64,000 nt of DNA from an uncultured Candidatus Saccharibacteria bacterium. GTDB taxonomy: Bacteria > Patescibacteriota > Minisyncoccia > Phycocordibacterales > GWA1-40-21. Positions within the stretch are counted from its first letter, which is position 1, and each line of letters opens with the position of its first letter. The translations under genes and the position numbers were made by a program. The stretch lies in the NCBI GenBank assembly GCA_964567825.1, contig CAZMNX010000002.1, positions 62,767 to 126,766 on the forward strand. Reading direction: 5' to 3'. Under the pieces are notes generated by a model. That model did not search any database. It was not told the DNA's origin and worked only from the letters and a program-made list of their open reading frames with translations. Below, one piece after another: positions 188 through 35,300 of this stretch.

Positions 188-853
188 TCATAAAAATCCA
201 TAAATTACCTTAATTACCCAAATGACAGCCTGCATCAAAACACTCCAGACCAAACAGCCAAAAATAGTGCTGGCGACGAAAATAATGTAATCTCTCTTGT
301 CTAATTTATCAAATTTACCGTGTCTTAGAAAAATAGTGGTAATAAAAGAATCCTGCCATGTTGATAAAGTGACGAAAGCAAATATGTCATTCTTATTCAA
401 TAACCAAATCATTAATTGGAGAAATTTAGCGGGGATATACAAGCTAAATCTTTTTAAAAGATTCTGATGGTTACTGACTTCATGGACCCAAAGATGACCT
501 TTAGCTTTAATACTTTCAATTTCATTTACCCCAAACCAATCTACTTTTTTCTTTTGATACCAAAGAAGAATTATGAAATTATTAATCAAAGCCATGACTA
601 TCAATATCAATATTCCCGCAAAACCATAGAATGCCTGTAGTAAGGGCCAAAGTATAAAATCCACCGCAAAGTTGTAGGCCTCGTATATTCCCCATCCGGA
701 CATCACCTGAACCGCCCGTCTCCAATTTTTAGATACTAAAAAAACAATAATTCCTAGAATTATTATTCCCCCAATTATCCATAACATGTCGTTTGTCATC
801 AAAATAATAATAACACATATAACTGAATAATGCCGACTTTTTCTAATACCCAT
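188..853 (-). CDS. polytopic integral membrane protein, function unknown
   Basis: 221-aa ORF with several long hydrophobic segments; no recognisable catalytic motif. Confidence 0.5.
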   Translation of the reverse strand: MGIRKSRHYSVICVIIILMTNDMLWIIGGIIILGIIVFLVSKNWRRAVQVMSGWGIYEAYNFAVDFILWPLLQAFYGFAGILILIVMALINNFIILLWYQKKKVDWFGVNEIESIKAKGHLWVHEVSNHQNLLKRFSLYIPAKFLQLMIWLLNKNDIFAFVTLSTWQDSFITTIFLRHGKFDKLDKRDYIIFVASTIFGCLVWSVLMQAVIWVIKVIYGFL

Positions 854-957
854 CCTGATTGAACTTAGGGGTAATTTATCTTGACAGATTCATATTTAAA
901 TGTAGTATGAAATAAGGTTTTTGCACATTAACATGCTAGATAGAAAGGAGCGTATTT

Positions 958-1386
958 ATGAAATTGGAAACTAGTTTCTACATTATCAAGCCCCATGGTT
1001 TGATATTTCTTGCGGAAGTCAGAGCAATGATCCAGGATGGTGGCCTAATCATCTCAGAAAGCAAGAGACTGATTATGCCGTATTGGGCTCTAGAGACCAT
1101 TTACTCTGACCTTCCAGAGAGATACAGGAGCGCAGTTTTCAAGCCTTTTGCCGACACGTCTGTTGAAGTTGGACTTGTGGTTGGAGAAAATGCCGTTGAT
1201 ACACTTCTTCAAATCGCAGGCACAGAACTTGATCCTGTTGATTGTGCCCCCGAAAGTATACGCTTTAAATTCGGAGGGCGAGGATCATTTATGATCGATG
1301 GAGTTAGATATTACAAAAATATCATCCATCGATCCAGGGACAGGATGGAGGCGAAAAAAGACGTTGATGTCTTCCGTATGTTATAA
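958..1386 (+). CDS. nucleoside diphosphate kinase-like protein (divergent)
   Basis: FYIIKP N-terminal motif, VVGENAV block and conserved NIIHRS (catalytic His position) align with the NDK family pattern FSIIKP / LEGENAV / NGTHGSDS. Confidence 0.55.
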   Translation: MKLETSFYIIKPHGLIFLAEVRAMIQDGGLIISESKRLIMPYWALETIYSDLPERYRSAVFKPFADTSVEVGLVVGENAVDTLLQIAGTELDPVDCAPESIRFKFGGRGSFMIDGVRYYKNIIHRSRDRMEAKKDVDVFRML

Positions 1387-1459
1387 CACCCAAGCAACAA
1401 AATGTTTGGGTGTTATTCTATTTCCAGGAAATCTTAAACTTAAACATTATAGGAGTTAA

Positions 1460-2350
1460 TTAACTAACTTCTAGATAAGCTCTAATATTATCTATAACCT
1501 TTTTACTCAGCTTTTCTCTGGCTTCTACCGTTATTCCAGCTATAATTTCTGTATATATAAATCTTTCCAAATCACCAAGTTTTTCTTTTATCTCAGGTTG
1601 GTAATCTCTTATTAAAAAATTATTTTTATTTCCAAGCCATAGTCGGATAGCATCAATATCTTGATAAATATTTCCTAGGCAGGTATCAACGATAATCTTA
1701 CCATTACCTATTTTTTCTAGTTCGTCTTTTCCAATGATCTTAGTATTTTTAGGAACATGCATAGATATAATGTCACTCTCTTTAAGTAAATCATCAATGG
1801 ATGAATATTGAACTCCTTTTTTTTCCCACTCTGTCTTTCTGGATTTACTGTAATACAAGACTCTCATTTTAAAACCTAAAGCTATTCTAGCAACCTGTTG
1901 TCCAACTGCTCCTAAACCAACAATTCCTAATGTTTTTGAACTAAGCTCACAAGGCTCATTTCTCCATATATGTTTACCAAATCCCCTAAAAAGATTGAGC
2001 AGTTGAGCAAAAATATATTCAGCCGTACCGTCATCGCCATAGTCTATAACATTTTTAACAACTATATTGTGTCTCCTTACTGCTTCTAAATCAATATTCG
2101 ACAAATTTGTTCCACAAATTCCAATATACTTAAGATTCGGAGTATGTTTTAAAACTAAAGAGGTTATCGTTGAGTGCCAATTTCCCAAGATAGCATCAGC
2201 ATCCTTAATCCTTTGATAAATTTCTGTTTCATCTTCTGTATCAGAGTTAGGATAAATAACACGTTCATTTGAATAATGCTGGATTAATTCTTTAGCTTCC
2301 TCGGTGATCTTAATTGTGTTGATCACAGCTATTTTTTTAAATTTTTTCAT
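1460..2350 (-). CDS. D-isomer-specific 2-hydroxyacid dehydrogenase (NAD-binding)
   Basis: GIVGLGAVGQQVARIA Rossmann motif and catalytic-domain layout typical of the glycerate/phosphoglycerate dehydrogenase family. Confidence 0.8.
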   Translation of the reverse strand: MKKFKKIAVINTIKITEEAKELIQHYSNERVIYPNSDTEDETEIYQRIKDADAILGNWHSTITSLVLKHTPNLKYIGICGTNLSNIDLEAVRRHNIVVKNVIDYGDDGTAEYIFAQLLNLFRGFGKHIWRNEPCELSSKTLGIVGLGAVGQQVARIALGFKMRVLYYSKSRKTEWEKKGVQYSSIDDLLKESDIISMHVPKNTKIIGKDELEKIGNGKIIVDTCLGNIYQDIDAIRLWLGNKNNFLIRDYQPEIKEKLGDLERFIYTEIIAGITVEAREKLSKKVIDNIRAYLEVS

Positions 2351-2384
2351 ATTATATTTTTATGGTGTTTATTAACACAATACG

Positions 2385-3614
2385 TTATGCTGTTATAATT
2401 TCAAACCTCTCGTATACTTTTAACATTCTACTTAAGACTTCGTCCGCAGTTTGCCCAGTGATTTGAACCCACCCAGAACAACTTGTGTATTGTCTTTTTG
2501 ATTCAACAACATCTCCAATCTTATATGTGACATTACCATCGATTACTCCGGTAAGACTACTTAGATCTTGATAGGAAGAAATTTTAGTGATAACTCCATT
2601 GGTCAACGGTAAAAACATGTCGCCAACACATTGCCGACCATTAAGCGGAAGTGGTTGGATTTTTCTTCCAACCATAATGTCGACCAATAAAGAACAAACA
2701 TCTACTCCAAAAGCAAGACTTTGATTTGATAACATATGGTCCCCAGGAGTCCGCCATGCAAATTCACAAATTATAGGCTGTCCTTGAGAATCAACAAAAA
2801 ACTCAATTTCGATATATCCATTTTTTAGACCAAGAGTACTAATTATATTTTGAGTTATTTTTCTTCCATCAAACCTAATGTTCTTGGGATCTTCTGCAAC
2901 GGTGATCTGAGCAAACTTCTCTTTCTTTTCTGCAAAACTGAGATTGGTGTATGGGAGCCATGTAAGAAAAGTCCCCACAACTTTACTATCTTGTATTAAA
3001 GAATCAAAACTCCAAATCAAATATGGACAGTATGTTTCTGCAATAAATCGCCCTGTAGAATAATCAAGACTAAGAGCTTCTAACTGGCCCTTGCTTTCAA
3101 TCCTATAGACCTCCTTTGATGATAGTCCCTTACGCCACTTAACTATAAAAGGGAAACCGTCATGTTTTTCGGCAAATTTTAGCGCATCATCTATGGAATT
3201 TAGTTCTTGATAAGACACTGTTTGGTATCCAAGCTCCTGCAATTTATCTTTCATTACTGCTTTGTCCCTTACACATCGAGCTTGGTATTCGTTCAATGCA
3301 CCTGAGAGACCAAGCAACGAAGCAAATCTCTGAACCACCTCCTGATTATATTCGGAGTCATTATAGAAATAATCAACCGTAATTTTACTTTTGGTACAGA
3401 ATATTCTAAACCTTTCAACTTCATGTTCTATGGTCTCTGTTTTGTCAAAGATAAAACAGGGGATGTCAGATGTCGCATTGAGATGAGTTTGACTAAAGAA
3501 CATATTTTGCTTAAATCTTAATAAAACCAAGCTAATGGTTCTATTTGACGCTACACTCTTTGAAAGCGTGTTTTCATACTCCTCTACAAAAAGAAGTGTC
3601 GGTTTATTAATCAT
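2385..3614 (-). CDS. ATP-grasp domain enzyme (carboxylate-amine ligase-like)
   Basis: FPFIVKWRKGLSSKEVYRIES and IEIEFFVDSQGQPIICEFAWRTPG blocks match the ATP-grasp fold; 409 aa. Confidence 0.6.
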   Translation of the reverse strand: MINKPTLLFVEEYENTLSKSVASNRTISLVLLRFKQNMFFSQTHLNATSDIPCFIFDKTETIEHEVERFRIFCTKSKITVDYFYNDSEYNQEVVQRFASLLGLSGALNEYQARCVRDKAVMKDKLQELGYQTVSYQELNSIDDALKFAEKHDGFPFIVKWRKGLSSKEVYRIESKGQLEALSLDYSTGRFIAETYCPYLIWSFDSLIQDSKVVGTFLTWLPYTNLSFAEKKEKFAQITVAEDPKNIRFDGRKITQNIISTLGLKNGYIEIEFFVDSQGQPIICEFAWRTPGDHMLSNQSLAFGVDVCSLLVDIMVGRKIQPLPLNGRQCVGDMFLPLTNGVITKISSYQDLSSLTGVIDGNVTYKIGDVVESKRQYTSCSGWVQITGQTADEVLSRMLKVYERFEIITA

Positions 3615-4063
3615 GGCATATTAGAAAATATTTCTTTTATTTTTTCTGACGTTTCTGGCAACTGGTTATCAAAGAGTAAATAATTTTTTAAATCACCATA
3701 AGAAACCCACTTATAAGTTCGTACCTCACCAGGGTTTGGGATTATGGTCTTTTCATCACCAACAAACCTGAACCCAAAGAAATATCGTTCTGAGCCTTCA
3801 TATTCAATCCCGTCACGATTCATCTTTATTTCCTTGAATTTAAACCTGACAGGAATATCACTCTGGCCCATGATCTGAAGATTTTTTTCCTTAATTCCTA
3901 ATTCTTCATTTAACTCTCGGTACACAGCATCTTTTAATGATTCTTTCTGTTCAACTCCGCCCCCGGGTATTGCAAAATATTTGTCTTCAAAAGACTCTAG
4001 ATTAACCAAAAGAAACTCGTTCTTTTTATTTATGACAATGGCTGAAACTCCTTTTCTATACAT
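3611..4063 (-). CDS. NUDIX hydrolase
   Basis: Canonical Nudix box GGGVEQKESLKDAVYRELNEELGI (GX5EX7REUXEEXGU); 4-nt overlap with upstream gene (operon coupling). Confidence 0.8.
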   Translation of the reverse strand: MYRKGVSAIVINKKNEFLLVNLESFEDKYFAIPGGGVEQKESLKDAVYRELNEELGIKEKNLQIMGQSDIPVRFKFKEIKMNRDGIEYEGSERYFFGFRFVGDEKTIIPNPGEVRTYKWVSYGDLKNYLLFDNQLPETSEKIKEIFSNMP

Positions 4064-4080
4064 AATTTTTATAAATTTAT

Positions 4081-4965
4081 TTATACTATTAATGACTTAA
4101 GAAGAATAGAGGTCGCTTTCTTTTTCATATTTTCTGGTATGAACCTGAAAAATAAATCAGGGTCAATTAATTCTACCTCTAAAATTTCATAACTGGTGTT
4201 AAACCTTAAAAAATCAACTCTACATATATTAGGGAAGCCACCAAACTTCTTTAGGAGAAATACTTTTAATGTATCTACTTCTTTTTTTATAAACTTTGGT
4301 AAGTTGATAGACTTTATATAAACCGGATCTAATTTTTCACTAAAAATTCCCGGAAACCTCTTTACGCCATATAAGACTATACCGTCAATTATAACAACAG
4401 AAATTTCTCCAGTCAATATGTCTGGTCTATAGGGCTGTGCAATAAAATCGAGTTGTCTATTTTGTTGCAGTGAGGTGATAAGAGTTTTATTGTTTCCTGT
4501 CTCATCATATTTAAAAGTCAGATAACCGCTTTCTGAAATACGAGGCTTAATAACCAGCGTGTCTGTTTTCAATGTTTTTTTTGTTTGTAATACCATACCT
4601 CTAATCTCAGATACTTTTTTTGTACTTTTGAAATTAAAGAGCACTGTGGGGACTACGCTCATGTTTTTTAATTCATGTAAGTATTTATGCTTATCAATAT
4701 TCCAAAGGATAAAATCATAGTCGTTTATTAGTCTAATGTTCTTTTTCTTAAGCATCGATATTTTCTTCAAAAAATCTCGATAATGTAAATTATACCCCCA
4801 AATACTTTTTAAAAGTACCACATCAAAAGGTTTGGCTATTCTTACAGCATCTTTTAGAGTAACAATTTCGCATAAAAATCCCTTATTTCTATAGGCGTCA
4901 CGTATATAAGCATCTTCTAAGATTTTCCCTACATACTTTTCTGATGAGGCAATATATATTTTCAT
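4081..4965 (-). CDS. ATP-grasp family protein (RimK / glutathione-synthetase-like)
   Basis: LVIKPRISESGYL ATP-grasp loop, RVDFL and EVELID metal/ATP motifs; 294 aa. Confidence 0.55.
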   Translation of the reverse strand: MKIYIASSEKYVGKILEDAYIRDAYRNKGFLCEIVTLKDAVRIAKPFDVVLLKSIWGYNLHYRDFLKKISMLKKKNIRLINDYDFILWNIDKHKYLHELKNMSVVPTVLFNFKSTKKVSEIRGMVLQTKKTLKTDTLVIKPRISESGYLTFKYDETGNNKTLITSLQQNRQLDFIAQPYRPDILTGEISVVIIDGIVLYGVKRFPGIFSEKLDPVYIKSINLPKFIKKEVDTLKVFLLKKFGGFPNICRVDFLRFNTSYEILEVELIDPDLFFRFIPENMKKKATSILLKSLIV

Positions 4966-6587
4966 ACTAATAATTCTATGGATGATTTGAGGCGTAGAAA
5001 AGATTTCAGTAAATCTTCATACGCACCAAAAGCGATAGTCACTCTTGCGATTAGTTGATTCTGATTGGGCCAGCAAAACGCTCTACCAGTTAATAGTTTA
5101 ATATTGCCAGATGTATACAAAAATCTTAGCAAGGTTGTATCATCAGTTATCCTAAATTCTTTATATGATTTCCCGAGTAATTTACTTAAATCTAAAAGTA
5201 TAAAAAATCCTGACTCTGGATCAAGTACTATACTGACATCTTTAATACCACTCATAGTTTTTTTAATATCAAAAATAAGTTTGTTATTCTTAATGATCTT
5301 ATTAAGCAGTCTTCTTTCTTCTTTATTAAGATTATCAGCTCCTATAATAATAGCTTTTGCAAAGATGTACCTTTCATAATATTTCCTAGTAATAACGGTA
5401 AAGTACTTCTCTCTTTCCATAAGAGAAGTATGATCAGTTAAGAAAACTGCACTCATGGCAGCCGACTGTAATAATGACAATGAATCCAGGCTCTGAAATA
5501 TTTTATCTCTTATTAAGGAGATAATCGCCTCGTTAGCAATAACCATGCCCGACCTTAAGCTAGCTAACCCGTAAGATTTAGAAAGAGAATGTAGTGTTAT
5601 TGTATTATTAAAATGACCCTTTAAGCTACAGATTGGCAGTGCAGTTGAATTTCTATTAAATTCTAAACCAGAATAAGCCAAATCATCAATAATAAATACA
5701 CCAGCCTCATTGCAAATATTAGAAATTTCTAACAACAACGACCTGTCTTTTTTACTATACACAACACCTGTCGGGTTGTGCGGATTTAAATTAAGAAAAG
5801 CAGAAACTCTTGGTGGTATATCAGAACGTCTAAAAACATATTTCGCCCTATTTATATCGTAATCTCGCTTAAGTTCATCATTTGTTTTAATAATAAGTTG
5901 CTTAAGCTCTTTAGGATTAATTTTCCAATCATCAAGACTTCTAAGCGGTAAGAGTCTAACTTCTCCTCCAATCCTCTCTGGTATAAAGGCAAAAAGTCCA
6001 TAATTAGGAGCCGTCATAATGACCACATCACCATAATCCAGTATTGCTTCCATAACAAAGGTAAAAGCTTGTGTGCTTGAATGAGTAAAAATAATATTAT
6101 TCTCACAAATTTCTAAATCATGAGAGATTTTAAAGTATTTTATAATAGGCACTTTGTCCTCGCTATATCCAGCGGCTAATTGATAATCAGAAAGTATTCT
6201 ATTTTTCAAGGCCTGTTTTATACTCTTAGTACAACTACCAAAAGGATTAAAGCGTGCAGGACTTCCAACTCCCAATCTAACTTTATCCACAACAGGATCT
6301 TTAAAGCCTTTTATAAGGAGGTTTGTGGAAAGACTGTAATCATCATACACTCTAGCCGCTTCTTGTATCTCAGTAGATTTCCAAGAGTTCAAAAGTGTAT
6401 TACCTAAATGAGGTAGTCCACCGTAAAATAACCTGTTGACCTGGTTTGATGGGTACATTCGTACTACAGATCGTATGGACTTAGGAAGATTCTTGTTTCT
6501 TATGATTTTTTGTTTATTATTATTAACCATGATATGCACACCAGCATACCATAAACCATCAATATAGTCTATACCAGTTGAAATCAC
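4962..6587 (-). CDS. PLP-dependent aminotransferase, class I/II, with ~150-aa N-terminal extension
   Basis: LSKSYGLASLRSGMV PLP-lysine motif, NPHNPTG motif; 541 aa; overlaps neighbours by 1-4 nt. Confidence 0.75.
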   Translation of the reverse strand: MISTGIDYIDGLWYAGVHIMVNNNKQKIIRNKNLPKSIRSVVRMYPSNQVNRLFYGGLPHLGNTLLNSWKSTEIQEAARVYDDYSLSTNLLIKGFKDPVVDKVRLGVGSPARFNPFGSCTKSIKQALKNRILSDYQLAAGYSEDKVPIIKYFKISHDLEICENNIIFTHSSTQAFTFVMEAILDYGDVVIMTAPNYGLFAFIPERIGGEVRLLPLRSLDDWKINPKELKQLIIKTNDELKRDYDINRAKYVFRRSDIPPRVSAFLNLNPHNPTGVVYSKKDRSLLLEISNICNEAGVFIIDDLAYSGLEFNRNSTALPICSLKGHFNNTITLHSLSKSYGLASLRSGMVIANEAIISLIRDKIFQSLDSLSLLQSAAMSAVFLTDHTSLMEREKYFTVITRKYYERYIFAKAIIIGADNLNKEERRLLNKIIKNNKLIFDIKKTMSGIKDVSIVLDPESGFFILLDLSKLLGKSYKEFRITDDTTLLRFLYTSGNIKLLTGRAFCWPNQNQLIARVTIAFGAYEDLLKSFLRLKSSIELLV

Positions 6588-7627
6588 TACTCTACAATTA
6601 AATTTGGGGGAACATGTAGTTCTTCAAAAGTTAATTTATATTTGATAGTTTGTTTACCCATTAGAGATAATATAGTATTTGCAATATCTACTTTTGTCGG
6701 GTAGTAAGACTCAGTGAGTATTGTTGAGGTAGGTACTGGAACATCAGGACAAAAAAGTGAAACTGGAGCGTTCTTCAAATACATCAGGTGTTTTTCCGCA
6801 ACTTTTGCGATAACATCTGAGCCAACACTAAAAGCATGATTAGTGGTATCAATTGTGATAAGTCGACCAGTTTTTTTTACTGATTTAAAAATAGTTTCGT
6901 AATCTATCGGATTTATGGAAACAAGATCTATAAGTTCCACGTCAACATGACCACTAATCAACTCTAAAGCTTCATACGCCGCAATCAAACCATCCCCATA
7001 AGAAACAATTGTGAGATCCGCACCTTTTTTTACCACAACAGCTTTATCGAGTGGTTCATCATATAGTTCGGTTGGCACATCTTGTCTCAAGGAGAAAAGC
7101 CAGCGTGGTTCCAAAATGACCACAGGATTTTTATCACGGACTGCAGAGATAAGTAAACCCTTTGCCATACGTGGAGTAGAAGGAATCACAACTTTAAGAC
7201 CAAGTGCGTTTCCAAAAAGTGAATAGAGTGCTTGTGTATGTTGTGGGCCTTGGCCCCATTGTCGACCAATATTAATCCTAAATACAATAGGCACCGAATG
7301 TCCGCCGCCGAACATATAATTCCATTTTGCCGCTTGTGTAAATATCTGATCGGCTGCAAAGAGTGCGAACTCAACCCTACCATGATGCACAATGGGGTGA
7401 AGACCAGTTATCGCTGCACCGACAGCCATTCCCGTTACAGCATTTTCTGATTGTGGTGTTTCAATTATACGGGAAGGATATTTTTCCTTAAGTCCAGCTG
7501 TTGTTCCGTCTGCACCATTTTTATATGAAACTTCTAGACCCATAACAATAACATCCTGATCTACCTCCATCATTTGGTCTGTAGCTTCTTTAATTGCTTC
7601 AGTATATGTAATAATTCTATTAGACAT
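6587..7627 (-). CDS. 2-oxoacid (acetoin/pyruvate-type) dehydrogenase E1 component beta subunit
   Basis: Transketolase-like pyrimidine-binding and C-terminal domains (GLEVSYKNGADGTT, IPSTPRMAKGLL). The ORF-track start at 7714 overlaps E1 alpha by 95 nt. The start is likely the ATG at 7627, giving the coupling overlap ATGTCTAA with the E1 alpha stop. Confidence 0.85.
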   Translation of the reverse strand: MSNRIITYTEAIKEATDQMMEVDQDVIVMGLEVSYKNGADGTTAGLKEKYPSRIIETPQSENAVTGMAVGAAITGLHPIVHHGRVEFALFAADQIFTQAAKWNYMFGGGHSVPIVFRINIGRQWGQGPQHTQALYSLFGNALGLKVVIPSTPRMAKGLLISAVRDKNPVVILEPRWLFSLRQDVPTELYDEPLDKAVVVKKGADLTIVSYGDGLIAAYEALELISGHVDVELIDLVSINPIDYETIFKSVKKTGRLITIDTTNHAFSVGSDVIAKVAEKHLMYLKNAPVSLFCPDVPVPTSTILTESYYPTKVDIANTILSLMGKQTIKYKLTFEELHVPPNLIVE

Positions 7628-8612
7628 AAAGGTTGGTATATAAGCTTTTTTTATTTGGAAATGGTGACTTTTCAGCAAAAATAATAGCATCAATAACAGT
7701 TTTTTTAATATCATCTTCCATAGCAGTAATTTCCTCTTCGGAAACTCCTGAAGCCAGAGTTTCTCGTCTCATTCTGACTACTGAATCTTTCTCTTTTCGC
7801 TGTTCTACTGTATCTTCCTCACGAGTTTCCTCCTCAAAGGCTGGCCCACTGTGTGCCATGTGACGGTAGGTCATACATTCGATGAGGGCAGGTTTGCCCG
7901 CACGTACTTCGGTGATAAGATCTCTGGTTTTTATGACCACGTCGGAATAATCATTCCCATCAGCCTTTATATATCGTACTCCAAACCCAGCAACGATCCT
8001 TTCGGTATTGTGAGATACTGATCGCCGTTCCCAAAGACGGGTATTAATGGACCGAAGATTATTTTCAAGTACGATAAGTAACGGCAGCTTAAAAAGTGTT
8101 GCCAAATTTAAAGACTCGTAGATACCCCCCTCCTCAAATGCACCGTCGCCTAAGAAAACAACTGTTACCGAATCACTCTTGTGATAATTTTGTTCAAAGG
8201 CACTACCACAGGAAAGCGGTAAAGCACTTGAGAGAATTGGTGTTGAGCCAATAAAATTAACTGATTTATCAATCAAGTGCATTGATCCGCCCTTACCGTG
8301 TGACGAACCATATTCCTTTCCAAGCAACTCGCAGACCATTTTCTTGAGATCTCCTCCTTTAGCAAGATAGTGTCCGTGTGATCGATGATTTCCCATCACA
8401 CGGTCATCTTTGTGTAGCGCATCGCAGACACCTACAGCTACCGCTTCTTGACCAACATAAAAATGGACAAGACTCAATATCTTATTCTTAAGGTAATAAA
8501 AAGCTATTTGTTCCTCCGCTGTCCGAATAAGGAACATCTTTTTATAAGCGTCTAATAACATAGACTCAATTCTATTGAAAATGACACTTTTGTCAATCAA
8601 AATTGAACCCAA
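7620..8612 (-). CDS. 2-oxoacid dehydrogenase E1 component alpha subunit (TPP-dependent)
   Basis: TPP-binding GDGAFEEGG...LENN motif and YRHMAHSGPA E1-alpha signature. Confidence 0.85.
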   Translation of the reverse strand: MGSILIDKSVIFNRIESMLLDAYKKMFLIRTAEEQIAFYYLKNKILSLVHFYVGQEAVAVGVCDALHKDDRVMGNHRSHGHYLAKGGDLKKMVCELLGKEYGSSHGKGGSMHLIDKSVNFIGSTPILSSALPLSCGSAFEQNYHKSDSVTVVFLGDGAFEEGGIYESLNLATLFKLPLLIVLENNLRSINTRLWERRSVSHNTERIVAGFGVRYIKADGNDYSDVVIKTRDLITEVRAGKPALIECMTYRHMAHSGPAFEEETREEDTVEQRKEKDSVVRMRRETLASGVSEEEITAMEDDIKKTVIDAIIFAEKSPFPNKKSLYTNLYV

Positions 8613-8640
8613 CAGGCTGTATTTTTACTGGATTGTTTGA

Positions 8641-9156
8641 CTAACTTTTATCTTTAGCTAAATCCAAAACTTTACTTACAAACTCGCTTTTACCACTAAT
8701 ATAAACATCCTTTCCTGAAGGATCATTCTCTAGCAAATTTTCTTTTAATTTTTGATACTCGTCTCTAAAATCTGGGTGATTTCTCAAATAATCTCTAAAT
8801 ATAATCTGTCGTTCCCAAAAATTTCCTCTATCCTTATAAGCAATAGAAAGGTGAAATTTTGTAGGGTTACCTTTCCTGAATAAGTGCCTTTCTCCACTGG
8901 AATTTAATTTGTCATAAGAATATCCAAATTTCTCAAGTGGTTTAATAAAGGAATCTCCATCCTCTCTTTTTTCTATCAGAACAACAATGTCAATAATTGG
9001 TTTTGAAGATAATCCAGGAATAGAGGTGCTACCAATATGCTCAATGGCAATAGCCTTATTACCAAATATTTCTTGTAATTTACCTTTTTCTGTCTGAAAC
9101 TTATCTTGCCAGGATAGTTGATAAGAGACTAGGGTTGTATGTGATAAATCTGTCAT
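8641..9156 (-). CDS. GrpB-family (nucleotidyltransferase-fold) protein
   Basis: HIGSTSIPGLSSKPIIDIVVLIE matches the GrpB/UPF0157 signature. Confidence 0.7.
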   Translation of the reverse strand: MTDLSHTTLVSYQLSWQDKFQTEKGKLQEIFGNKAIAIEHIGSTSIPGLSSKPIIDIVVLIEKREDGDSFIKPLEKFGYSYDKLNSSGERHLFRKGNPTKFHLSIAYKDRGNFWERQIIFRDYLRNHPDFRDEYQKLKENLLENDPSGKDVYISGKSEFVSKVLDLAKDKS

Positions 9157-10136
9157 TAGTGTTTAATTATTGTAATATTTTTTCTCCCAGTATCTATACT
9201 AGCTTCTCCACCAATAGGAAAAGTAATTATTGGACTAGTGTGGCCAAAATCAACATTGGCAATTACAGGAATATTTTTTAATTCAGCTTTATTTTTAATA
9301 ATCTTAATTAATTTTTCACTAGCCATCTCAGTTGCTTTCTGAAATCTACCAATCACTACGCCTTTTACTCCTTTGAAATCCGGCAGATGAATAAGAGATT
9401 GCAAGTTTCGATCAAAGTCCACATATTTTGAAGTATCATCGTCCTCTAAGAATAAAATTGAACCCTTTAGATTTGGCATATATTCCGTTCCTTGAAGCAG
9501 ATTAAATGTACAAAGATTTGCTCCGAGAATAGTTCCGGTAGCTTTACCTTTATTTATTATAAGCCAACCATCATTTTTAATCGGGTTTCTTCTATCCTGA
9601 TCCATATACCAAGCATCATCTGTCCATTCTTTAGAGGGTGTAATTTCAAAGCAATCATTCTCCACTAAGCATTTCGTAAAATAATCCATTGTATACTCAA
9701 AATGCAATTTTTGACCGAAAGTTGACCAAGCTGGACCAGAATAGGTCACCAACCCAGTTTTAGCAAAAATAGCATTTTGCAAAGCGGTAGTATCAGAGTA
9801 ACCGATAAATATTTTCGGATTATCCTTTATAATGTTCCAATCAATATATTTTAAGAGCTGATTACAGTTAAAACCACCAATAACGGTAAAAACGGCTTTA
9901 ATATTTTTATCGAGAAAAGCCTTATGCAAATCTGCCACCCTAGACTTTATCGATGATGAACCGAAGTTATCAGTCTCTTCTACATTCTTACTAAAGGATA
10001 TTCTTAAACCTAAATCCATAAGCCGATCATTGGAGATCTTCCTGTTGGCTTGGGAAATAATAGAAATGGAGTGAGATGGCGCTATAATCCTTATTTCATC
10101 ACCTTTTTGTAATTTTTTGGGATATATCTTTTTCAT
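9156..10136 (-). CDS. LD-carboxypeptidase (peptidase family S66, LdcA/MccF-like)
   Basis: GDEIRIIAPS N-terminal motif and catalytic-Ser context GYSDTTALQNAI typical of S66. Confidence 0.75.
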   Translation of the reverse strand: MKKIYPKKLQKGDEIRIIAPSHSISIISQANRKISNDRLMDLGLRISFSKNVEETDNFGSSSIKSRVADLHKAFLDKNIKAVFTVIGGFNCNQLLKYIDWNIIKDNPKIFIGYSDTTALQNAIFAKTGLVTYSGPAWSTFGQKLHFEYTMDYFTKCLVENDCFEITPSKEWTDDAWYMDQDRRNPIKNDGWLIINKGKATGTILGANLCTFNLLQGTEYMPNLKGSILFLEDDDTSKYVDFDRNLQSLIHLPDFKGVKGVVIGRFQKATEMASEKLIKIIKNKAELKNIPVIANVDFGHTSPIITFPIGGEASIDTGRKNITIIKH

Positions 10137-10166
10137 AGGCCCATATTAGCACAAAACCAGCTTATG

Positions 10167-10448
10167 CTAAATAGGCTTAATTTCTATCCCATAAATCCCA
10201 AATTTAGGGATGTTTTCTTTATACTCTTCAAAAACGGTATTGTATCTTTCAATAGCACCACTGATATCCAAGCCGGAGGACAAAGCATTCCTAGTTCCTT
10301 CCGCCTCTAACATAGATCTGACATCTGGGTAGTGCCTAACGCCTAAAATTTCCACTTTCATCACCTCATTTGTCGTCATGTTGGTAAAAGTAAAAGTGTC
10401 TCCTGATTTTAGATCAACATAAGGAGTTTTATCATAACTGGTCGGCAC
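10167..10448 (-). CDS. small ASCH-like domain protein (tentative)
   Basis: 93 aa; beta-rich sequence with EILGVRHYPDVRSMLEAEG block reminiscent of the ASCH/PUA-like fold; weak. Confidence 0.35.
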   Translation of the reverse strand: MPTSYDKTPYVDLKSGDTFTFTNMTTNEVMKVEILGVRHYPDVRSMLEAEGTRNALSSGLDISGAIERYNTVFEEYKENIPKFGIYGIEIKPI

Positions 10449-10518
10449 TCGAGTTTCTATCTTTTTTTTCCAGCTTTTATGGCTTTAAATGGCCTATCTA
10501 ATAAATTTAAGTTGTAGT

Positions 10519-10998
10519 TCATTTTATTTTACTTAAGATTAATTTGACAGTTTCCTCTGGTGTTTGGTCAGTGTTATCAATTATCTCTCCAAAACTTGGC
10601 TTATGAATGCCAGTATCGTAATGGTGCTGGATTCTCTGTCTTTCCCAGTCGGTTAATTCTCTAGTACCTCTATTTGTCAGAGTTTTTTCTAGCTTTGGTG
10701 CCAAAGTAAAGACATGCGTCTCAATATCCAGATCCTTTAGACCAGCAACAAAATAATCGTAATTCTTTTGAGACAGTGGGTATGGGACAATAACATTCAG
10801 ACCCCTAGCTATAAAATTTCTAATAGTTGTGAGGGCGTTTTCGAGGTTTAAGGGGATAGCTTCATCTATAGGCATCCACTCTATCATTTCGTGAAAGGCG
10901 TCTATCTCCATCAGTGCCGTTTTAGGCAATTCTTTTGCTAAGAGTTTTGCCACCGTGCTTTTACCAGAATTTATTGAGCCGTTTAAAAATATAATCAT
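10519..10998 (-). CDS. P-loop kinase-like ATPase (AAA_33 / TmrB-like)
   Basis: Walker A GSINSGKST at N-terminus; 159 aa, size and layout typical of small nucleotide/antibiotic kinases. Confidence 0.55.
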   Translation of the reverse strand: MIIFLNGSINSGKSTVAKLLAKELPKTALMEIDAFHEMIEWMPIDEAIPLNLENALTTIRNFIARGLNVIVPYPLSQKNYDYFVAGLKDLDIETHVFTLAPKLEKTLTNRGTRELTDWERQRIQHHYDTGIHKPSFGEIIDNTDQTPEETVKLILSKIK

Positions 10999-11002
10999 AT
11001 TA

Positions 11003-11749
11003 TTATTTTAATTTTTTTAATAATCTCAAACTTTGCCTAATAAATTCAGTAAAATCTTTTTTATTAACTACTAAATCTTCATAAAGATTTTCCAATAATT
11101 TTGATAAAAATTCACCATTTATTTTCAGCTCCTTGTGTTTGGGATAATAACCGTAATATTTTGGAATATTGAGGGCGTTTATTATTCTATCATCGCAAAG
11201 AATAATCACAGCTAACATCTCACTCAAAATCCATTCTTTATGTGGGCTTTCATATTTTTCTCTGCTTATCTCCGGAAATTCTTCTTTAAGCTTTTTGAAA
11301 AATAAAAAATGTGATATTTCATGAGCAATAGTTTTATTTGGATTTTTATGATCCGGTGGTATGGAGAAGCTCCAGTTATCAAGAAAACGTGGGCAGATTG
11401 GATTGATTGAAATATAAGCGGTGATTTCTTTTTCTAGATAATTTGTTTGAATTATCTCAAATAATTTTTCTAAAGTTTCTTTTTCTACTTTTTGCCAATT
11501 ATTTTTTACTAGTAATAGTCCTTCATTAATTTTAGAACCAAGTTCCTGTCTTATATTAGTAATTTCTTTCTTGATAGATTGTTTTCTCTTGTCCTCATTC
11601 TCCATTTTCTTAATTTCTAAAAACTGGGGGTATTTTTTAGTTATCACATCACTCCAATCTTCAGCCAAAAAGCCTAGCAACATTTCGGTTTCTAGATCTA
11701 GTGGCATTTGTTTGAAGATTACTTTTGGAAGAGTATTTTCTATCGTCAT
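11003..11749 (-). CDS. putative HExxH zinc metallopeptidase-like protein
   Basis: Single HEISH motif in 248-aa soluble protein; otherwise no clear family. Confidence 0.4.
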   Translation of the reverse strand: MTIENTLPKVIFKQMPLDLETEMLLGFLAEDWSDVITKKYPQFLEIKKMENEDKRKQSIKKEITNIRQELGSKINEGLLLVKNNWQKVEKETLEKLFEIIQTNYLEKEITAYISINPICPRFLDNWSFSIPPDHKNPNKTIAHEISHFLFFKKLKEEFPEISREKYESPHKEWILSEMLAVIILCDDRIINALNIPKYYGYYPKHKELKINGEFLSKLLENLYEDLVVNKKDFTEFIRQSLRLLKKLK

Positions 11750-11750
11750 A

Positions 11751-12374
11751 TTATTCTAATTCTTTTAAAAGTTTCAAAGATCTCTCCAAAAGATAATCTC
11801 CACCCTCACCCCAATCAAAGTATCTTTTGTAATTCTTTGGATCTATTAATTCTATCTTATTAATATCGCCATCCGGATCAGAGATAAAATCACCATATGG
11901 TTCAACTAGACAAAAAGATCTGGTTTGAGTGACGATACCTTGTGGTTCAGAAATTTGAATGAAACCAATAGGAATCTGTTTAATAACTTTCATATTTGTT
12001 TCTTCTTTTACCTCTCTTATAACAGCTTCTTCAATCGTTTCTCCAGCTTCAACTGCTCCGCCTGGTGGAGTCCAATAATTCTTCTTATCAGACCAGACGA
12101 CAACCATTTTTCCTTTATAAAAACAAAAAGCGTGAACACCTTGAACCTTAATATCTTTTAATTCCGAAAAATCATTACTGCCAGAATAGGTATAATCCAA
12201 CATTTGACCACTACGGTTTTTCAACTGAGATTTAAATGGTAATAATTTTTTGACTAGTTCCTGCCAATTTTCCACTCTGATAACTTTAGGTAAAAATTGA
12301 TTGAATTCTCGAACCTCTTTTTCCTCGGGTTGAAAGAGGAATAATTTCGAAACAGTTCCAATCATATAACTCAA
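11751..12374 (-). CDS. NUDIX hydrolase (C-terminal part of a disrupted HAD-NUDIX gene)
   Basis: Nudix box GGAVEAGETIEEAVIREVKEETNM; reading frame is open for ~105 codons upstream of the annotated ATG. Confidence 0.8.
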   Translation of the reverse strand: MSYMIGTVSKLFLFQPEEKEVREFNQFLPKVIRVENWQELVKKLLPFKSQLKNRSGQMLDYTYSGSNDFSELKDIKVQGVHAFCFYKGKMVVVWSDKKNYWTPPGGAVEAGETIEEAVIREVKEETNMKVIKQIPIGFIQISEPQGIVTQTRSFCLVEPYGDFISDPDGDINKIELIDPKNYKRYFDWGEGGDYLLERSLKLLKELE

Positions 12375-12731
12375 AACCTCTAACCGATCATCAACAAAAT
12401 AGGTAATATTATTTTCTCTGCAGATTTTCTCTTTCTCGCTTCGTTCTTGGCAGAAGAAGACATTTTCTGTTTTTATACCTATTTTGATATAAAAATCATT
12501 ATCATCAAGCCAAGCTAAAATCTTTTCTCTGGCCCAAGCGGTACATTTAGATATTAAAAAAATATCACCATGAAATTTCTCATCATTAAGTTTCCTTAAA
12601 CAATCAAAAACATCATCTGTCGCTGGAATGGTGGAATACCTTTCCTCTAATAATGTCTTATCTTCTTTATCTACTAAACGATGATTAATAATTACATTTC
12701 AAATATCTACACCTAAGGCTTCCTTTTTCAT
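12375..12731 (-). pseudogene. N-terminal HAD-like (NT5C-type deoxyribonucleotidase-like) segment in frame with the NUDIX ORF, interrupted by in-frame TGA at 12699-12701
   Basis: ATG at 12731, then MKKEALGVDI-TGA-NVIINHRLVDK... The stop sits at the second Asp position of a DxDxV HAD motif I. An ITYFVDD HAD motif IV-like block lies further on. There are no further stops until the NUDIX domain. Confidence 0.45.
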
Positions 12732-12895
12732 AAAGTTAAAGATAGCACAAGAAAAGACTTTTATAAATCCTAAAACACAAAAGCACCCAATTGGGTGCTT
12801 TTGTGTTTTGAATACCGCTCTCAGCGGGTATGCTTTCTCCGGTTAGACCTTGGGCTTCGTTCGACGCGACTCGTGCGCTCGAACCTCGCTCAAGT

Positions 12896-12969
12896 TGGCT
12901 GGGAGACTTGGAATCGAACCAAAATTAACGGCTTCAAAGGCCGCTGTCCTACCGTTAGACGATCTCCCA
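12896..12969 (-). tRNA. tRNA-Gln (anticodon TTG)
   Basis: Minus-strand cloverleaf: acceptor TGGGAGA/TCTCCCA, anticodon stem GCGGC/GCCGT with loop CTTTGAA, T-loop TTCGATT, encoded CCA. Confidence 0.8.
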
Positions 12970-13042
12970 ATAAATAGCGAAAAGCTGATAGCTTTGCTAT
13001 ATAAGCACTAGAATACGTTAAAAATTAGACTTTTTCAAGTGT

Positions 13043-13070
13043 TTGACAACTCAAATCTGCTTGCTATAAT
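13043..13070 (+). promoter_or_regulatory. near-consensus sigma70-type promoter TTGACA-N16-TATAAT (extended -10 TGcTATAAT) reading toward the 3' end of the MazF-like gene
   Basis: TTTGACAactcaaatctgcttgcTATAAT on plus strand; no plus-strand CDS downstream, only two hairpins. Confidence 0.45.
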
Positions 13071-13083
13071 CACAGTGATTATG

Positions 13084-13130
13084 GGCTTCGGCCTCCGAGA
13101 AATCCCGCTTTGGCGGGATTTCGTTGTTTA
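13084..13130. terminator. tandem hairpins (GGCTTCGGCC; AAATCCCGC-tttg-GCGGGATTT) between convergent units; likely bidirectional terminator
   Basis: Perfect 9-bp stem at 13100-13121 followed by cgTTgTTTaTaaT on plus strand and lying just 3' of the minus-strand MazF-like stop. Confidence 0.55.
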
Positions 13131-13526
13131 TAATATACCTCTAACCATATAAGCGATTTTTTCTAGTAGTGCTTGATAATCCCCTTCTTTAATTGTACCA
13201 ATCTTTCGAAATAATCTTTTTGAACTAACCGACTTGATTTGCGATAAGCAAGAATTATAGGTTTTATCATCTTCGCCATTAACATTAAAGTAATACTTAT
13301 TGTCTCTATCTTGAGTAGTAGTTGGAACAACCAGGGCCATGTATTTATTAAATTTCCTAACAATTATGACTGGTCGCAAGAATAACTCGTGTTTTCCATC
13401 AATCTCGACACCAATATTCGTACCGATAATACACCACCAAACTTCCCTTTCATAAAAAAGAACAATATCGTCAATTTGTTGAGTTTCCTTTTTCTTGTTA
13501 TTCCAGAGATCAAAATCTTTTTCCAT
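13128..13526 (-). CDS. PemK/MazF-family endoribonuclease toxin homolog (no adjacent antitoxin ORF seen)
   Basis: EREVWWCIIGTNIGVEIDGKHELFLRPVIIVRKFN...ALVVPTTTQ matches the MazF/PemK pattern (G..G.E..G..RP.lV...N...V.P.T.Q); only 66 nt separate it from dnaX. Confidence 0.75.
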   Translation of the reverse strand: MEKDFDLWNNKKKETQQIDDIVLFYEREVWWCIIGTNIGVEIDGKHELFLRPVIIVRKFNKYMALVVPTTTQDRDNKYYFNVNGEDDKTYNSCLSQIKSVSSKRLFRKIGTIKEGDYQALLEKIAYMVRGIL

Positions 13527-13592
13527 AGCGGCGGTATTCTAGCACGCAGGTAAAAAACCAAGATTTAGGGCTGTGTATAAATGAACCGAGGT

Positions 13593-14621
13593 TTAGCCTA
13601 GAATTTTAGTCAGTGCCAATTCCAGCACCAACTCAGGAATATACGCCTTGCTGACCATATCATAATACGAAAGCAAAAGAAGAAGACTGTCGGAGTTAAT
13701 CTTACTCCCCTTTTTGTCTGCCAAGGTTTTAAGGAAAGTGAAATCCGTGTCCGTCATCTCCTCTTTAAACTTTTCCTCCGAAGATTTCAAGTGGCGCATT
13801 AAAAGCACGGCGCGGATTTTAGCGAGGATTAATTTGAAATATAGTAATGTATCAATATTCGATTCTGAGGCTTCGGAAATGGCCTTGAGACCAAGTTCTA
13901 AATTATTTTCATCAATCGATTTTATAAAGCTATTCACCAATTCCGCCTTCGGCGCGCCAGTAACCAAAATCACCTCCTCGGCGGAGATTTTTTTATCTTT
14001 AGACGATCCGATAATCTTCTGCAAAATGCTTTGCGCATCACGGAAGGAACCATCGGCCAGTAAAGCAATGAGTTCGGCCGAAGCCGGTTCCAAAACGAAA
14101 CCCTCTTTTTTAGCAATAGCTAAAGCTACTTCTTTTAACACTTTTTGATTTGGTTTCTTGAAGGAAAAAGTTTGGCAACGAGAAATCACCGTCTCAGGAA
14201 TTTTGCTTTCTTCAGTTGTGGCCATAATGAAGACGACATGAGCGGGTGGCTCTTCCAGGGTTTTAAGTAAAGCATTCCAAGCCGATTTTGATAGCATATG
14301 GGCCTCATCTAAAATATAAACTTTGTATTTGGATTCAAACGGCAAAGTGTTTACCGATTCATTGAGCGCACGAATATCATCCACCCCGGTATTCGAGGCG
14401 GCATCGATTTCATTTATATCACTGGCGCTTGTTCCTATTTCATTTGCAAAAATGCGGGCCACGGAGGTTTTACCAGTTCCACGAGAACCGGAAAAAATAT
14501 AAGCATGAGCGATATTGCCCTGCTCAATCGAAGATTTTAAAACTTTAACAATATGATCCTGCCCCAAAACATCGGAGAATTTCTTGGGGCGATATTTACG
14601 ATACAAGGCTTGGTCGGACAT
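13593..14621 (-). CDS. dnaX: DNA polymerase III subunit gamma/tau (short form)
   Basis: YRPKKFSDVLGQ, AYIFSGSRGTGKTSVARIFA Walker A, ILDEAHMLS box; 342 aa. Confidence 0.85.
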   Translation of the reverse strand: MSDQALYRKYRPKKFSDVLGQDHIVKVLKSSIEQGNIAHAYIFSGSRGTGKTSVARIFANEIGTSASDINEIDAASNTGVDDIRALNESVNTLPFESKYKVYILDEAHMLSKSAWNALLKTLEEPPAHVVFIMATTEESKIPETVISRCQTFSFKKPNQKVLKEVALAIAKKEGFVLEPASAELIALLADGSFRDAQSILQKIIGSSKDKKISAEEVILVTGAPKAELVNSFIKSIDENNLELGLKAISEASESNIDTLLYFKLILAKIRAVLLMRHLKSSEEKFKEEMTDTDFTFLKTLADKKGSKINSDSLLLLLSYYDMVSKAYIPELVLELALTKILG

Positions 14622-14648
14622 GAAAGTAGTATAACAAAATTTTCATAT

Positions 14649-14692
14649 AAAAAAAGGTCGGCCCAACCTAGAGCAAGCTCACGGTTGGGCCG
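14649..14692 (-). terminator. rho-independent terminator (CGGCCCAACC...GGTTGGGCCG + T8 on minus strand)
   Basis: 10-bp perfect stem followed by TTTTTTTT, 30 nt upstream of the dnaX start codon. Confidence 0.65.
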
Positions 14693-14880
14693 ATGTACGT
14701 AACGACATCGTCGTCAGTCCAGATGGGCCGGTTCACGGCGTAACCCAGATTGAGATTCATGAGACGGTGTTCCGCATTGTGGTCGGATAACCGAGTCCTC
14801 GTCGTCGCTAGTACCACGAAAATGATCAACTGTTATTAGTTTATACCTATTGTATATAAATTGCAAATAAAAAGTAGGCT
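14693..14880 (-). ncRNA. candidate structured small RNA (GC-rich, ~60% GC, ends at the terminator above); identity unresolved, SRP/4.5S RNA considered because of the position upstream of dnaX
   Basis: ~190-nt GC-rich intergenic tract between dus stop (14882) and the terminator. It contains multiple internal complementary segments (cgtcgtc / gacgacg) and no RBS-preceded ORF. I could not locate the SRP domain IV GGAA/AGCAG motif by eye. Confidence 0.25.
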
Positions 14881-14881
14881 C

Positions 14882-15868: not shown

Positions 15869-15896
15869 TTATTCAACATATCATTACTTTTGATAT

Positions 15897-15925
15897 TTGA
15901 CAAGTCTACTGTAATCTGCTATACT
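15897..15925 (+). promoter_or_regulatory. sigma70-type promoter TTGACA-N17-TATACT for GC-rich cassette 1
   Basis: tTTGACAagtctactgtaatctgcTATACT, about 45 nt upstream of the SD-preceded GTG start. Confidence 0.55.
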
Positions 15926-15973
15926 ATCATTCTCGGTAAGAATTTCGAATAAGTTCATTGAAGGAGGCACAAC

Positions 15974-16180
15974 GTGACGAAGCTACATATAAACCCGATT
16001 CGGTTCGGGCGAGACGAAGATGGTTTCTACTGGGTTGGCGGGGTGGTTCTGGGCGTCGTCGCTCTGGCCATGGCGCTTGTCCTTGTATTGGTACCGGCAA
16101 TTCGGACCGACACAGCAATCGGTATCAACCTGCTGACCGGTGCACTCAGCGTCGCGATGTTCAACCTGGTCGGCACCTGA
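15974..16180 (+). CDS. small (68 aa) membrane protein, GC-rich cassette 1
   Basis: GAAGGAGG SD 6 nt before GTG; product MTKLHINPIRFGRDEDGFYWVGGVVLGVVALAMALVLVLVPAI... with 1-2 TM helices; ~62% GC against ~38% flanks; own terminator. Confidence 0.5.
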   Translation: MTKLHINPIRFGRDEDGFYWVGGVVLGVVALAMALVLVLVPAIRTDTAIGINLLTGALSVAMFNLVGT

Positions 16181-16201
16181 TGAAGGTGTGCGGCGACACG
16201 A

Positions 16202-16239
16202 AGGCGGGCTTCCAAACGGAGGCTCGCCTGTTCTTTTGC
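16202..16239 (+). terminator. intrinsic terminator (AGGCGGGC...GCTCGCCT + GTTCTTTTG)
   Basis: 8-bp stem (one mismatch) then U-rich tract directly after the stop of the 68-aa ORF. Confidence 0.6.
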
Positions 16240-35298: not shown

Positions 35299-35300
35299 GG

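Follow-up and report, generated by a model that had tools for sequence, protein, structure and literature searches.

A conserved aminotransferase, ATP-grasp and NUDIX gene core with an optional E1 module in a candidate biosynthetic operon of Patescibacteria

What would a member of the Patescibacteria, which are regarded as metabolically minimal and as scavenging their building blocks from hosts, be making with an aminotransferase, two ATP-grasp ligases, a NUDIX hydrolase and a set of oxo-acid and redox enzymes encoded side by side? The question is raised by seven minus-strand genes at positions 1460-8612 of a 64,000-nucleotide stretch of contig CAZMNX010000002.1 (hereafter the window), which is bacterial, has a guanine-plus-cytosine (GC) content of mostly 35-40%, and has homologs named Paceibacterota, Parcubacteria or Patescibacteria in their source records. 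Our best explanation is that the seven genes form a single operon, in a Patescibacteria (Paceibacteria-like) genome, that is organized around a conserved four-gene biosynthetic cassette and makes an amide-linked, amino-acid-derived metabolite, possibly one bearing a nucleotide or phosphate handle. We place the probability of this explanation, taken jointly, at about one half; every step of the pathway is read from family membership and gene linkage. A conserved, ATP-consuming cassette is notable precisely because these organisms are viewed as minimal scavengers, and it points to a metabolite that they need or use in interactions.

The open reading frame (ORF) listing contains the seven co-directional genes with the gaps and overlaps described in the original prediction, a reading made earlier from this DNA, and the domain identities that it gave for all seven proteins are upheld by both Pfam and NCBIfam. 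Along the minus strand these genes encode an E1 alpha-like thiamine pyrophosphate (TPP) enzyme subunit (7620..8561, 313 aa, E1_dh), an E1 beta-like subunit (6587..7627, 346 aa, Transket_pyr and Transketolase_C), a long class-I aminotransferase (AT; 4962..6530, 522 aa, Aminotran_1_2), a DcsG-like ATP-grasp protein (4081..4965, 294 aa), a NUDIX hydrolase (3611..4063, 150 aa), an L-amino-acid-ligase-type (LAL) ATP-grasp protein (2385..3614, 409 aa, LAL_C2), and a 2-hydroxyacid-dehydrogenase-fold (HADH-like) protein (1460..2350, 296 aa). By coordinates, the AT and DcsG-like genes overlap by 4 nt, as do the NUDIX and LAL genes, while gaps of 17 nt and 34 nt separate the DcsG-like gene from NUDIX and the LAL gene from the HADH-like gene, respectively. 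The start of E1 beta and the stop of E1 alpha overlap by 8 nt, ATGTCTAA, and direct reading of the sequence thus bears out the coupling proposed for this pair. By itself, the shared orientation is unremarkable because nearly all of 188-18338 lies on the minus strand; it is the conservation of gene order across divergent genomes, not co-directionality, that exceeds chance.

This conservation emerges from the neighborhoods around the AT, the small ATP-grasp and the E1 genes, which we read from 175 loci, with the window proteins mapped by phmmer onto 97 of them. Synteny was counted over 83 nonredundant loci carrying the small (DcsG-like) ATP-grasp; those not of the Patescibacteria type come mostly from human-gut metagenomes. 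Of the 68 loci whose upstream flank is visible, 67 have the AT gene immediately before the DcsG-like gene, and the two overlap by 4 nt in 24 of the 30 Patescibacteria-type loci. NUDIX follows the DcsG-like gene directly in 28 of 29 Patescibacteria-type loci, and a LAL gene is present within 3.5 kb downstream in all 15 Patescibacteria-type loci and in 23 of the 27 others. The parts of the cassette are also joined in single proteins: a NUDIX-AT fusion (P0106 in locus L007), AT-GNAT fusions in loci that have no DcsG-like gene and, among related loci, a methyltransferase-NUDIX fusion and a cytidylate-kinase-like-LAL fusion. The neighborhood comparison that the original prediction had proposed as its check therefore favors a functional unit, one that is smaller than the seven genes: the conserved unit is the four-gene core of AT, DcsG-like ATP-grasp, NUDIX and LAL, with NUDIX counted as a core gene in Patescibacteria, whereas E1 alpha/beta and the HADH-like protein are not obligate members but form an optional module. 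The sole exception to the AT-DcsG-like adjacency is L120, whose DcsG-like gene (8007-8525) is truncated to residues 123-291 and has no AT upstream, though NUDIX, LAL, HADH and NDK-like genes follow normally; it is either a decaying copy or an assembly artifact.

The core is shared by Patescibacteria and gut Bacillota with reduced genomes. Relatives of the AT number in the hundreds in a homolog search, and its identity runs at 60-90% across many Paceibacteria. Those of the AT-anchored loci L009-L015 that have an organism name belong to Bacilli, Clostridia or "Tenericutes" genomes assembled from metagenomes; L009-L015 are the only true relatives among the matches listed in a contig scan with the AT alignment, a scan that relied on generic class-I motifs and listed no Patescibacteria among those matches. 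None of the seven window proteins reaches a named-function or equivalog threshold in NCBIfam, and our literature searches on this gene combination recovered no description of the cassette. With the order kept in two phyla and no protein at the equivalog level, the earlier view of the block as a specialized pathway, and not a juxtaposition of central-metabolism genes, holds.

At the head of the core, the AT scores 100.2 bits against the Pfam Aminotran_1_2 domain. Its start is most likely ATG 6530, giving 522 aa, and not GTG 6587, which gives the longest ORF of 541 aa, because its homologs measure 520-523 aa. Thus, the originally proposed long aminotransferase with an extra N-terminal region stands, but the 541-aa length does not. 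The family is about 520 aa in length, against about 390 aa for typical class-I aminotransferases. The lysine that binds pyridoxal phosphate (PLP), the PLP-phosphate arginine, the Asn, Asp and Tyr of the site and the arginine that binds the alpha-carboxylate are invariant in 62 sequences, and the AlphaFold2 (AF2) model (mean predicted local distance difference test score, pLDDT, 93.3) matches best the folds of aspartate/prephenate and kynurenine aminotransferases, at about 18% identity. Domain, PLP-site residues and fold are hence all those of a class I/II (fold type I) aminotransferase. No named specificity is indicated among those covered (aspartate aminotransferase, DapL, HisC, GntC and others), the best NCBIfam score being 106.8 for GntC against a cut-off of 415, with the rest far below. 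Given the retained catalytic and carboxylate-binding residues and the resemblance of the model to Asp/prephenate and kynurenine aminotransferases, this protein is a genuine amino-acid or oxo-acid aminotransferase with about 100 additional N-terminal residues.

Its coupled partner, the 294-aa ATP-grasp protein, had been labeled RimK-like. It has no RimK match, and its scores with the gshB models are 22.5 and 19 bits, where 272 and 299 would be required. Its best NCBIfam match is DcsG, below the equivalog level at 59.3 bits versus a cut-off of 360, and the Pfam GSH-S_ATP score of 22.9 falls just under the gathering score of 23. The AF2 model (pLDDT 95.3) finds DcsG (6jil) as its best Foldseek match, with a template modeling (TM) score of 0.79-0.82 and E of 1e-18, followed by GshB at 4e-14. 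The ATP-grasp Lys and Mg ligands are retained, and one homolog, P0122, is 100% identical to the window protein. On the strength of the modeled fold, DcsG-like is a more accurate name than RimK-like; the function of DcsG is not transferable, as the identity is only 17-18%. The second ATP-grasp protein scores 36.5 bits against LAL_C2, above the gathering score of 29.4, alongside a weak ATP-grasp_4 match of 19.3, and its best PDB sequence matches are the L-amino acid ligase 4wd3 (E 3.5e-7) and BacD. It thereby combines the LAL-specific C-terminal domain with an ATP-grasp core, as L-amino acid ligases do, and is a putative member of that type with a predicted dipeptide-forming activity. The original prediction had counted ATP-grasp proteins that resolve as RimK/GshB housekeeping enzymes among the grounds for rejecting it; on these results, they are not such enzymes.

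The NUDIX protein (76.9 bits in Pfam) has a complete Nudix box, GX5EX7REUXEEXGU, which reads GGGVEQKESLKDAVYRELNEELGI in the translation. The first reading correctly called it a NUDIX hydrolase and left out what the NUDIX-AT fusion brings to light, namely that it is an integral partner of the other core enzymes. Downstream of the operon and convergent with it lies an NDK-like gene (958..1386, plus strand, 142 aa, NDK 40.6 bits) whose product keeps the catalytic His motif NIIHRS. It is a recurrent neighbor: 9 of 15 Patescibacteria-type loci have it beside the cassette, and its two arrangements are convergent downstream in most of them and divergent upstream in L002. A wider set of genes recurs around the core in related loci: APH-family kinases (L115, L128, L135), P-loop proteins resembling nucleoside monophosphate (NMP) kinases (L004, L089 and the LAL fusion), S-adenosylmethionine-dependent methyltransferases (L090, L093, L124, L156), PNP_UDP_1 nucleoside phosphorylases, a dNK-like kinase and extra NUDIX genes. 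Gut loci also have an ABC importer for polar amino acids and a LysR regulator near the core. Neighbors of these kinds suggest that the scaffold bears a phosphate or nucleotide handle, to which the recurrent kinases, methyltransferases and phosphorylases point, and that imported amino acids supply it. The earlier note had proposed a small-molecule logic of transamination, ligation and reduction; a specialized pathway is indeed what we favor, but such a handle had not been considered.

Two further observations concern these neighborhoods. In 15 loci, drawn from both phyla, a gene for a histidine kinase is found only a few kb from the cassette (L001, L004, L005/6, L089, L097, L109, L110, L113, L124/5, L160, L165), which may be a matter of chance as the family is large. 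In L007, the NUDIX-AT fusion, DcsG-like and LAL genes are followed at 8115-12591 by an APS-kinase-methyltransferase fusion, a sulfatase/phosphodiesterase-like protein and a B12-binding radical SAM enzyme, which suggests an extended tailoring pathway.

The E1 pair poses a separate problem, namely whether it is simply the first component of a pyruvate dehydrogenase (PDH) or branched-chain ketoacid dehydrogenase (BCKDH). E1 alpha scores 197.5 bits against Pfam E1_dh and 279.6 against TIGR03182, below the cut-off of 393.85; E1 beta reaches 261.1 with PRK09212, below 321. The best-scoring models and structures for both are PDH-type E1, and the translations retain the TPP motif GDG...NN in E1 alpha and two catalytic His motifs. 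The start of E1 alpha is most likely ATG 8561 (313 aa) and not TTG 8612, to which the longest ORF extends, because the orthologs in L001 and L090 are 313 aa; that of E1 beta is ATG 7627 (346 aa, with orthologs of 345-346 aa), a 375-aa ORF (6587-7714) that runs into E1 alpha being over-extended. As originally proposed, the pair stands without E2 or E3: neither was found among the window ORFs scanned, including every ORF of at least 400 aa, nor in eight related loci (L001, L090, L121 and L171-L175). Cluster-linked E1 alpha proteins are at least 79% identical to that of the window; below them, at 62-69%, comes a large family from Patescibacteria. In the two readable contexts of this family, the E1 genes lie in surface-glycan clusters, directly after a zinc-dependent alcohol dehydrogenase (Zn-ADH) and without E2 or E3, with genes for PfkB, SIS, cytidylyltransferase-like, SDR and glycosyltransferase proteins as neighbors. 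Given scores under the equivalog cut-offs, no E2/E3 nearby and the closest relatives in glycan clusters, the E1 pair appears not to belong to an ordinary PDH or BCKDH. The original prediction had named such membership as part of what would refute it, and the result thus favors a specialized role.

In L171-L175 (E1 alpha at about 10001-10951 in L171), the genes for Zn-ADH, E1 alpha and E1 beta recur as a unit that has PfkB next to it or nearby, within glycan-synthesis clusters rich in Methyltransf_21 and glycosyltransferase genes. This unit likely represents a branched-sugar or C2-transfer pathway that is apparently uncharacterized.

The protein originally called a D-2-hydroxyacid dehydrogenase has the expected domains (2-Hacid_dh, 73.9 bits; 2-Hacid_dh_C, 87.4 bits) and a GxGxxG-type Rossmann motif, GLGAxG (GLGAVG), that is conserved in its orthologs, but it lacks the catalytic Arg-Glu-His triad. 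In HMMER alignment with the solved enzymes 5aov, 2dbq and 6p2i, the catalytic Arg of glyoxylate reductase is replaced by Leu, the Glu by Gln and the His by Ile; the reference 6p2i keeps the Arg and is itself without the catalytic His. Across six orthologs, the Leu is invariant, the Glu position holds Gln or His, and the His position holds Ile or Asn. A search of 1.84 billion representatives gave 111 with E values no higher than 1e-30. Among the relatives (P0361-P0510), the best-scoring full-length proteins that were aligned, mostly about 295 aa, have no triad, and the canonical R/E/H appears only lower in the list; hence, triad loss is not specific to this operon and extends to a wider family of about 295 aa. 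The 2-oxoacid reduction step of the earlier scheme becomes doubtful with the three catalytic residues missing in all orthologs, and the protein would fit better as a redox enzyme for some other kind of substrate, or in a noncatalytic role.

The distribution of these three genes sets them apart from the core. In 7 of 15 Patescibacteria-type loci, LAL is followed by the HADH-like gene, and among cassette loci E1 alpha/beta were seen only where the HADH-like gene is also present; the pair precedes the AT in the window, L001 and L090 and comes after HADH in L121. Together they constitute an optional accessory module, which roughly half of the Patescibacteria-type loci have, in two arrangements, and the loci with E1 and HADH occupy two separate subclades of the AT tree. 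L121 (1-7282) is a mosaic, with LAL, HADH and E1 alpha/beta 81-86% identical to those of the window and AT, DcsG-like and NUDIX only 44-61%; LAL, HADH and E1 therefore moved together between lineages, by recombination or transfer.

Put together, these assignments would make for the following pathway. The long AT would convert an oxo precursor into an alpha-amino acid or an amine, and the coupled DcsG-like enzyme would activate a carboxylate as an acyl-phosphate and form an amide or ring with the AT product. That the AT-made amine may be the group acylated is indicated by the lineages in which a GNAT replaces the DcsG-like enzyme. The LAL-type ligase would then attach a further amino acid, and the NUDIX enzyme would remove or process a diphosphate or nucleotide handle on the substrate or an intermediate, with NDK-like proteins, small-molecule kinases and methyltransferases added in relatives. 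In some lineages, including that of the window, the E1 alpha/beta and HADH-fold module would probably supply or tailor the precursor through decarboxylation or two-carbon transfer from pyruvate, after which the NAD(P)-binding HADH-fold protein would perform a redox step on a substrate other than a 2-oxoacid. The pathway is predicted to end, in the cytoplasm, in an amino-acid derivative with an amide linkage. What it makes can be tested, as the four core genes are few enough to be expressed directly in a heterologous host.

Several points weigh against this reconstruction. The search for E2/E3 spans the 64-kb window, and copies could lie elsewhere in the genome; the triad-less HADH-fold protein might be noncatalytic; the NDK-like gene is absent from one AT subclade; and NUDIX and the NDK-like protein could be housekeeping enzymes kept close by synteny among related genomes. 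Across the related loci, no exporter or conserved regulator was found within the Patescibacteria cassette, and the 60-90% conservation of the AT within Paceibacteria resembles core physiology and not a variable natural-product cluster. A more ambitious form of the proposal is that Patescibacteria and reduced-genome gut Bacillota share an undescribed pathway to an amino-acid or short-peptide conjugate that is attached to a nucleotide or diphosphate handle or set free from one, with E1 and HADH chemistry new to their families. We advance it tentatively; if true, the conjugate could be a host-interaction signal, an antimetabolite or an unrecognized envelope building block of episymbiotic bacteria. 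The analysis also flags two enzyme families in non-textbook roles, the Patescibacteria E1 alpha/beta without E2/E3 and the triad-less 2-HADH-fold proteins.

Other readings of the same genes need to be set against the amide-linked metabolite. Were the block a coincidence of housekeeping genes on a shared strand (PDH E1, a general AT, RimK/GshB-type ligases, a MutT-type NUDIX and a glyoxylate or phosphoglycerate dehydrogenase), the almost uniform minus-strand run of 188-18338 with its short gaps would be expected, and so would E1 subunits that keep TPP motifs and score best against PDH-type models. The same order and adjacency are, however, kept in dozens of divergent loci from two phyla, gene fusions join parts of the cassette, all scores lie far under the equivalog cut-offs, no E2/E3 occurs in the window ORFs scanned or in any related locus examined, and the dehydrogenase-like protein is without its catalytic triad. 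Synteny and fusions thus largely refute coincidence, which we consider very improbable. The glycan-cluster setting of the closest E1 relatives, with their glycosyltransferases, SIS, PfkB and cytidylyltransferase-like genes, could suggest instead a cell-envelope pathway that makes an amino-acid or amide group or attaches it to a nucleotide-activated sugar or a peptidoglycan precursor; the ATP-grasps would be amidoligases, NUDIX and NDK would handle nucleoside diphosphate (NDP)-sugars, and E1 would install a C2 branch. In the window, L001, L089, L120 and L164, a gene for an S66 LD-carboxypeptidase is found only a few kb away, the AT and DcsG-like genes stand beside MurT/GatD, Ddl and FtsW in L005 and L006, and a GH20 hexosaminidase is inserted in L100. 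Campylobacter capsule biosynthesis, moreover, pairs a PLP aminotransferase with an ATP-grasp amidoligase. Yet in about 80 loci no glycosyltransferase, flippase or Mur ligase lies inside the cassette, all seven proteins appear cytoplasmic, and the AT, which keeps the Arg for the alpha-carboxylate, belongs with the amino-acid (Asp/prephenate) enzymes, whereas sugar aminotransferases are usually of the DegT type. On balance, an envelope role seems to us unlikely.

The nucleotide-related genes around the core could also be seen as the signature of a peptidyl- or aminoacyl-nucleoside/nucleotide antimetabolite directed against hosts or competitors, on the lines of puromycin, microcin C or argolaphos, with the neighboring hydrolases and kinases serving self-protection. 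NUDIX, NDK-like, P-loop NMP-kinase-like and APH-like kinases, PNP_UDP_1 and methyltransferases do recur around the core in both phyla, and AT-GNAT fusions exist. The run upstream of the window operon holds an S66 peptidase, of a family that includes the microcin C immunity protein MccF, along with a chloramphenicol-phosphotransferase-like kinase, GrpB and another NUDIX. Puromycin-type pathways employ a dehydrogenase, an aminotransferase, a Nudix enzyme and an amide ligase (PMC11641026). The invariant core, however, is without a nucleoside-specific enzyme, its AT falls outside the class that serves for keto-nucleotides, there is no conserved exporter, and the cassette is widespread and highly conserved instead of patchy like a toxin cluster; PADLOC yields only a weak NUDIX match. 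We therefore rate a toxin of this kind as decidedly unlikely, and retain the amide-linked metabolite as the preferred reading.

How does the predicted pathway compare with characterized ones? In LAL-based small-peptide pathways, the ligase is BacD in bacilysin and RizA in rhizocticin, and phosphonoalamide-type clusters have an aminotransferase and two ATP-grasp ligases. The window resembles these in its LAL_C2 ligase, in a class-I AT that may provide an unusual amino acid and in a second ATP-grasp for a second amide. It differs in the very low identity of its LAL to characterized members (best E 3.5e-7), in having no PEP mutase, prephenate-pathway or other warhead gene, in the integral NUDIX, and in its hosts, which are Patescibacteria and reduced-genome gut Bacillota and not Bacillus or Streptomyces. 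The DcsG-like protein is similar in size to DcsG, which is its closest solved fold and best NCBIfam match, but in contrast to DcsG, to which it is 17-18% identical, it is always partnered by a class-I AT; the cassette has no DcsA-E, and its neighbors in the loci examined are AT, NUDIX and LAL, with no arginase-like, CysK-like or DapF-like partner. The E1 pair keeps the TPP motif and two catalytic His motifs of pyruvate, acetoin and branched-chain 2-oxoacid dehydrogenase E1 components, yet it is linked to an AT/ATP-grasp cassette and its relatives to glycan genes.

Stand-alone E1 alpha/beta pairs are known from branched-sugar pathways, namely AviB1/AviB2 of avilamycin and Pau11/Pau12 of paulomycin (PMC4425429). 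Like these, and by gene context, not sequence, the window pair is without E2/E3, lies inside a specialized cluster and is paired with an oxidoreductase; unlike them, it is in an operon without sugar-pathway genes. The argolaphos (alp) cluster encodes a NUDIX protein, a PRK02186-type ATP-grasp, an NDK-like protein, GNATs, the dehydrogenase AlpK (cd05299), a class-I AT and a TPP decarboxylase (PMC8976061). In gene content this is a partial parallel to the cassette and its relatives, in which NUDIX, an ATP-grasp with PRK02186 as best model (here the LAL), NDK-like, GNATs, a dehydrogenase, a class-I AT and a TPP enzyme are likewise found. However, the PEP mutase and phosphonate enzymes that define argolaphos are missing from the cassette, and the TPP enzyme is E1 alpha/beta here and phosphonopyruvate decarboxylase there.

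Several named identities were tried and rejected. An anti-phage defense system was set aside with PADLOC giving the weak NUDIX match only, a phosphonate pathway with no PEP mutase in the window or related loci, a D-cycloserine pathway with no other dcs genes, and an ordinary PDH with E1 scores under the cut-offs and E2/E3 not nearby. Van-type depsipeptide resistance was likewise rejected, the vanH models giving 40-66 bits against cut-offs of 540-750 and the dehydrogenase-like protein lacking the catalytic residues.

Candidate signals flank the operon. Between the convergent HADH-like and NDK-like genes, a hairpin scan finds a 14-bp hairpin (1383..1416) that is no more than suggestive of a bidirectional terminator at the operon 3' end, the total of terminator-like sites not being above the shuffled expectation. 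A promoter-like TTGACA-16-TAGAAT (8569..8596, minus strand) just upstream of ATG 8561 is the best match on that strand, at 11/12; it is a weak candidate for the operon promoter, as the number of such sites equals chance expectation in the shuffled comparison.

Farther upstream, 8641-13526 is a minus-strand run of GrpB, the S66 LD-carboxypeptidase, a 93-aa ORF, the chloramphenicol-phosphotransferase-like P-loop kinase, a 248-aa ORF, a second NUDIX, a tRNA and a MazF toxin, which looks like a set of detoxification or nucleotide-handling genes. A Ter-type stress cluster occupies 31774-39425 on the minus strand, with ComF-like phosphoribosyltransferases (31774-32676 and 33370-34281), a HAD hydrolase (32676-33365), a vWA-TerF-like protein (34498-35298), a weak TelA match (35301-36389), TerD (36425-37105), a 413-aa ORF and TerC (38559-39425). 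With a GC content of 53-59% at 34000-40000, where most of the window has 35-40%, this region may be an island gained by horizontal transfer or else a chimera of the assembly. GC is also high (0.53) in a second patch at 28000-30000, which holds the overlapping ORFs 28194-29348 (plus strand) and 28278-29279 (minus strand), with no Pfam match; despite these GC spikes, there is no rRNA in the 64-kb window. Finally, 51245-52153 encodes NusB fused to a C-terminal NUDIX domain, the third NUDIX domain found in the window.

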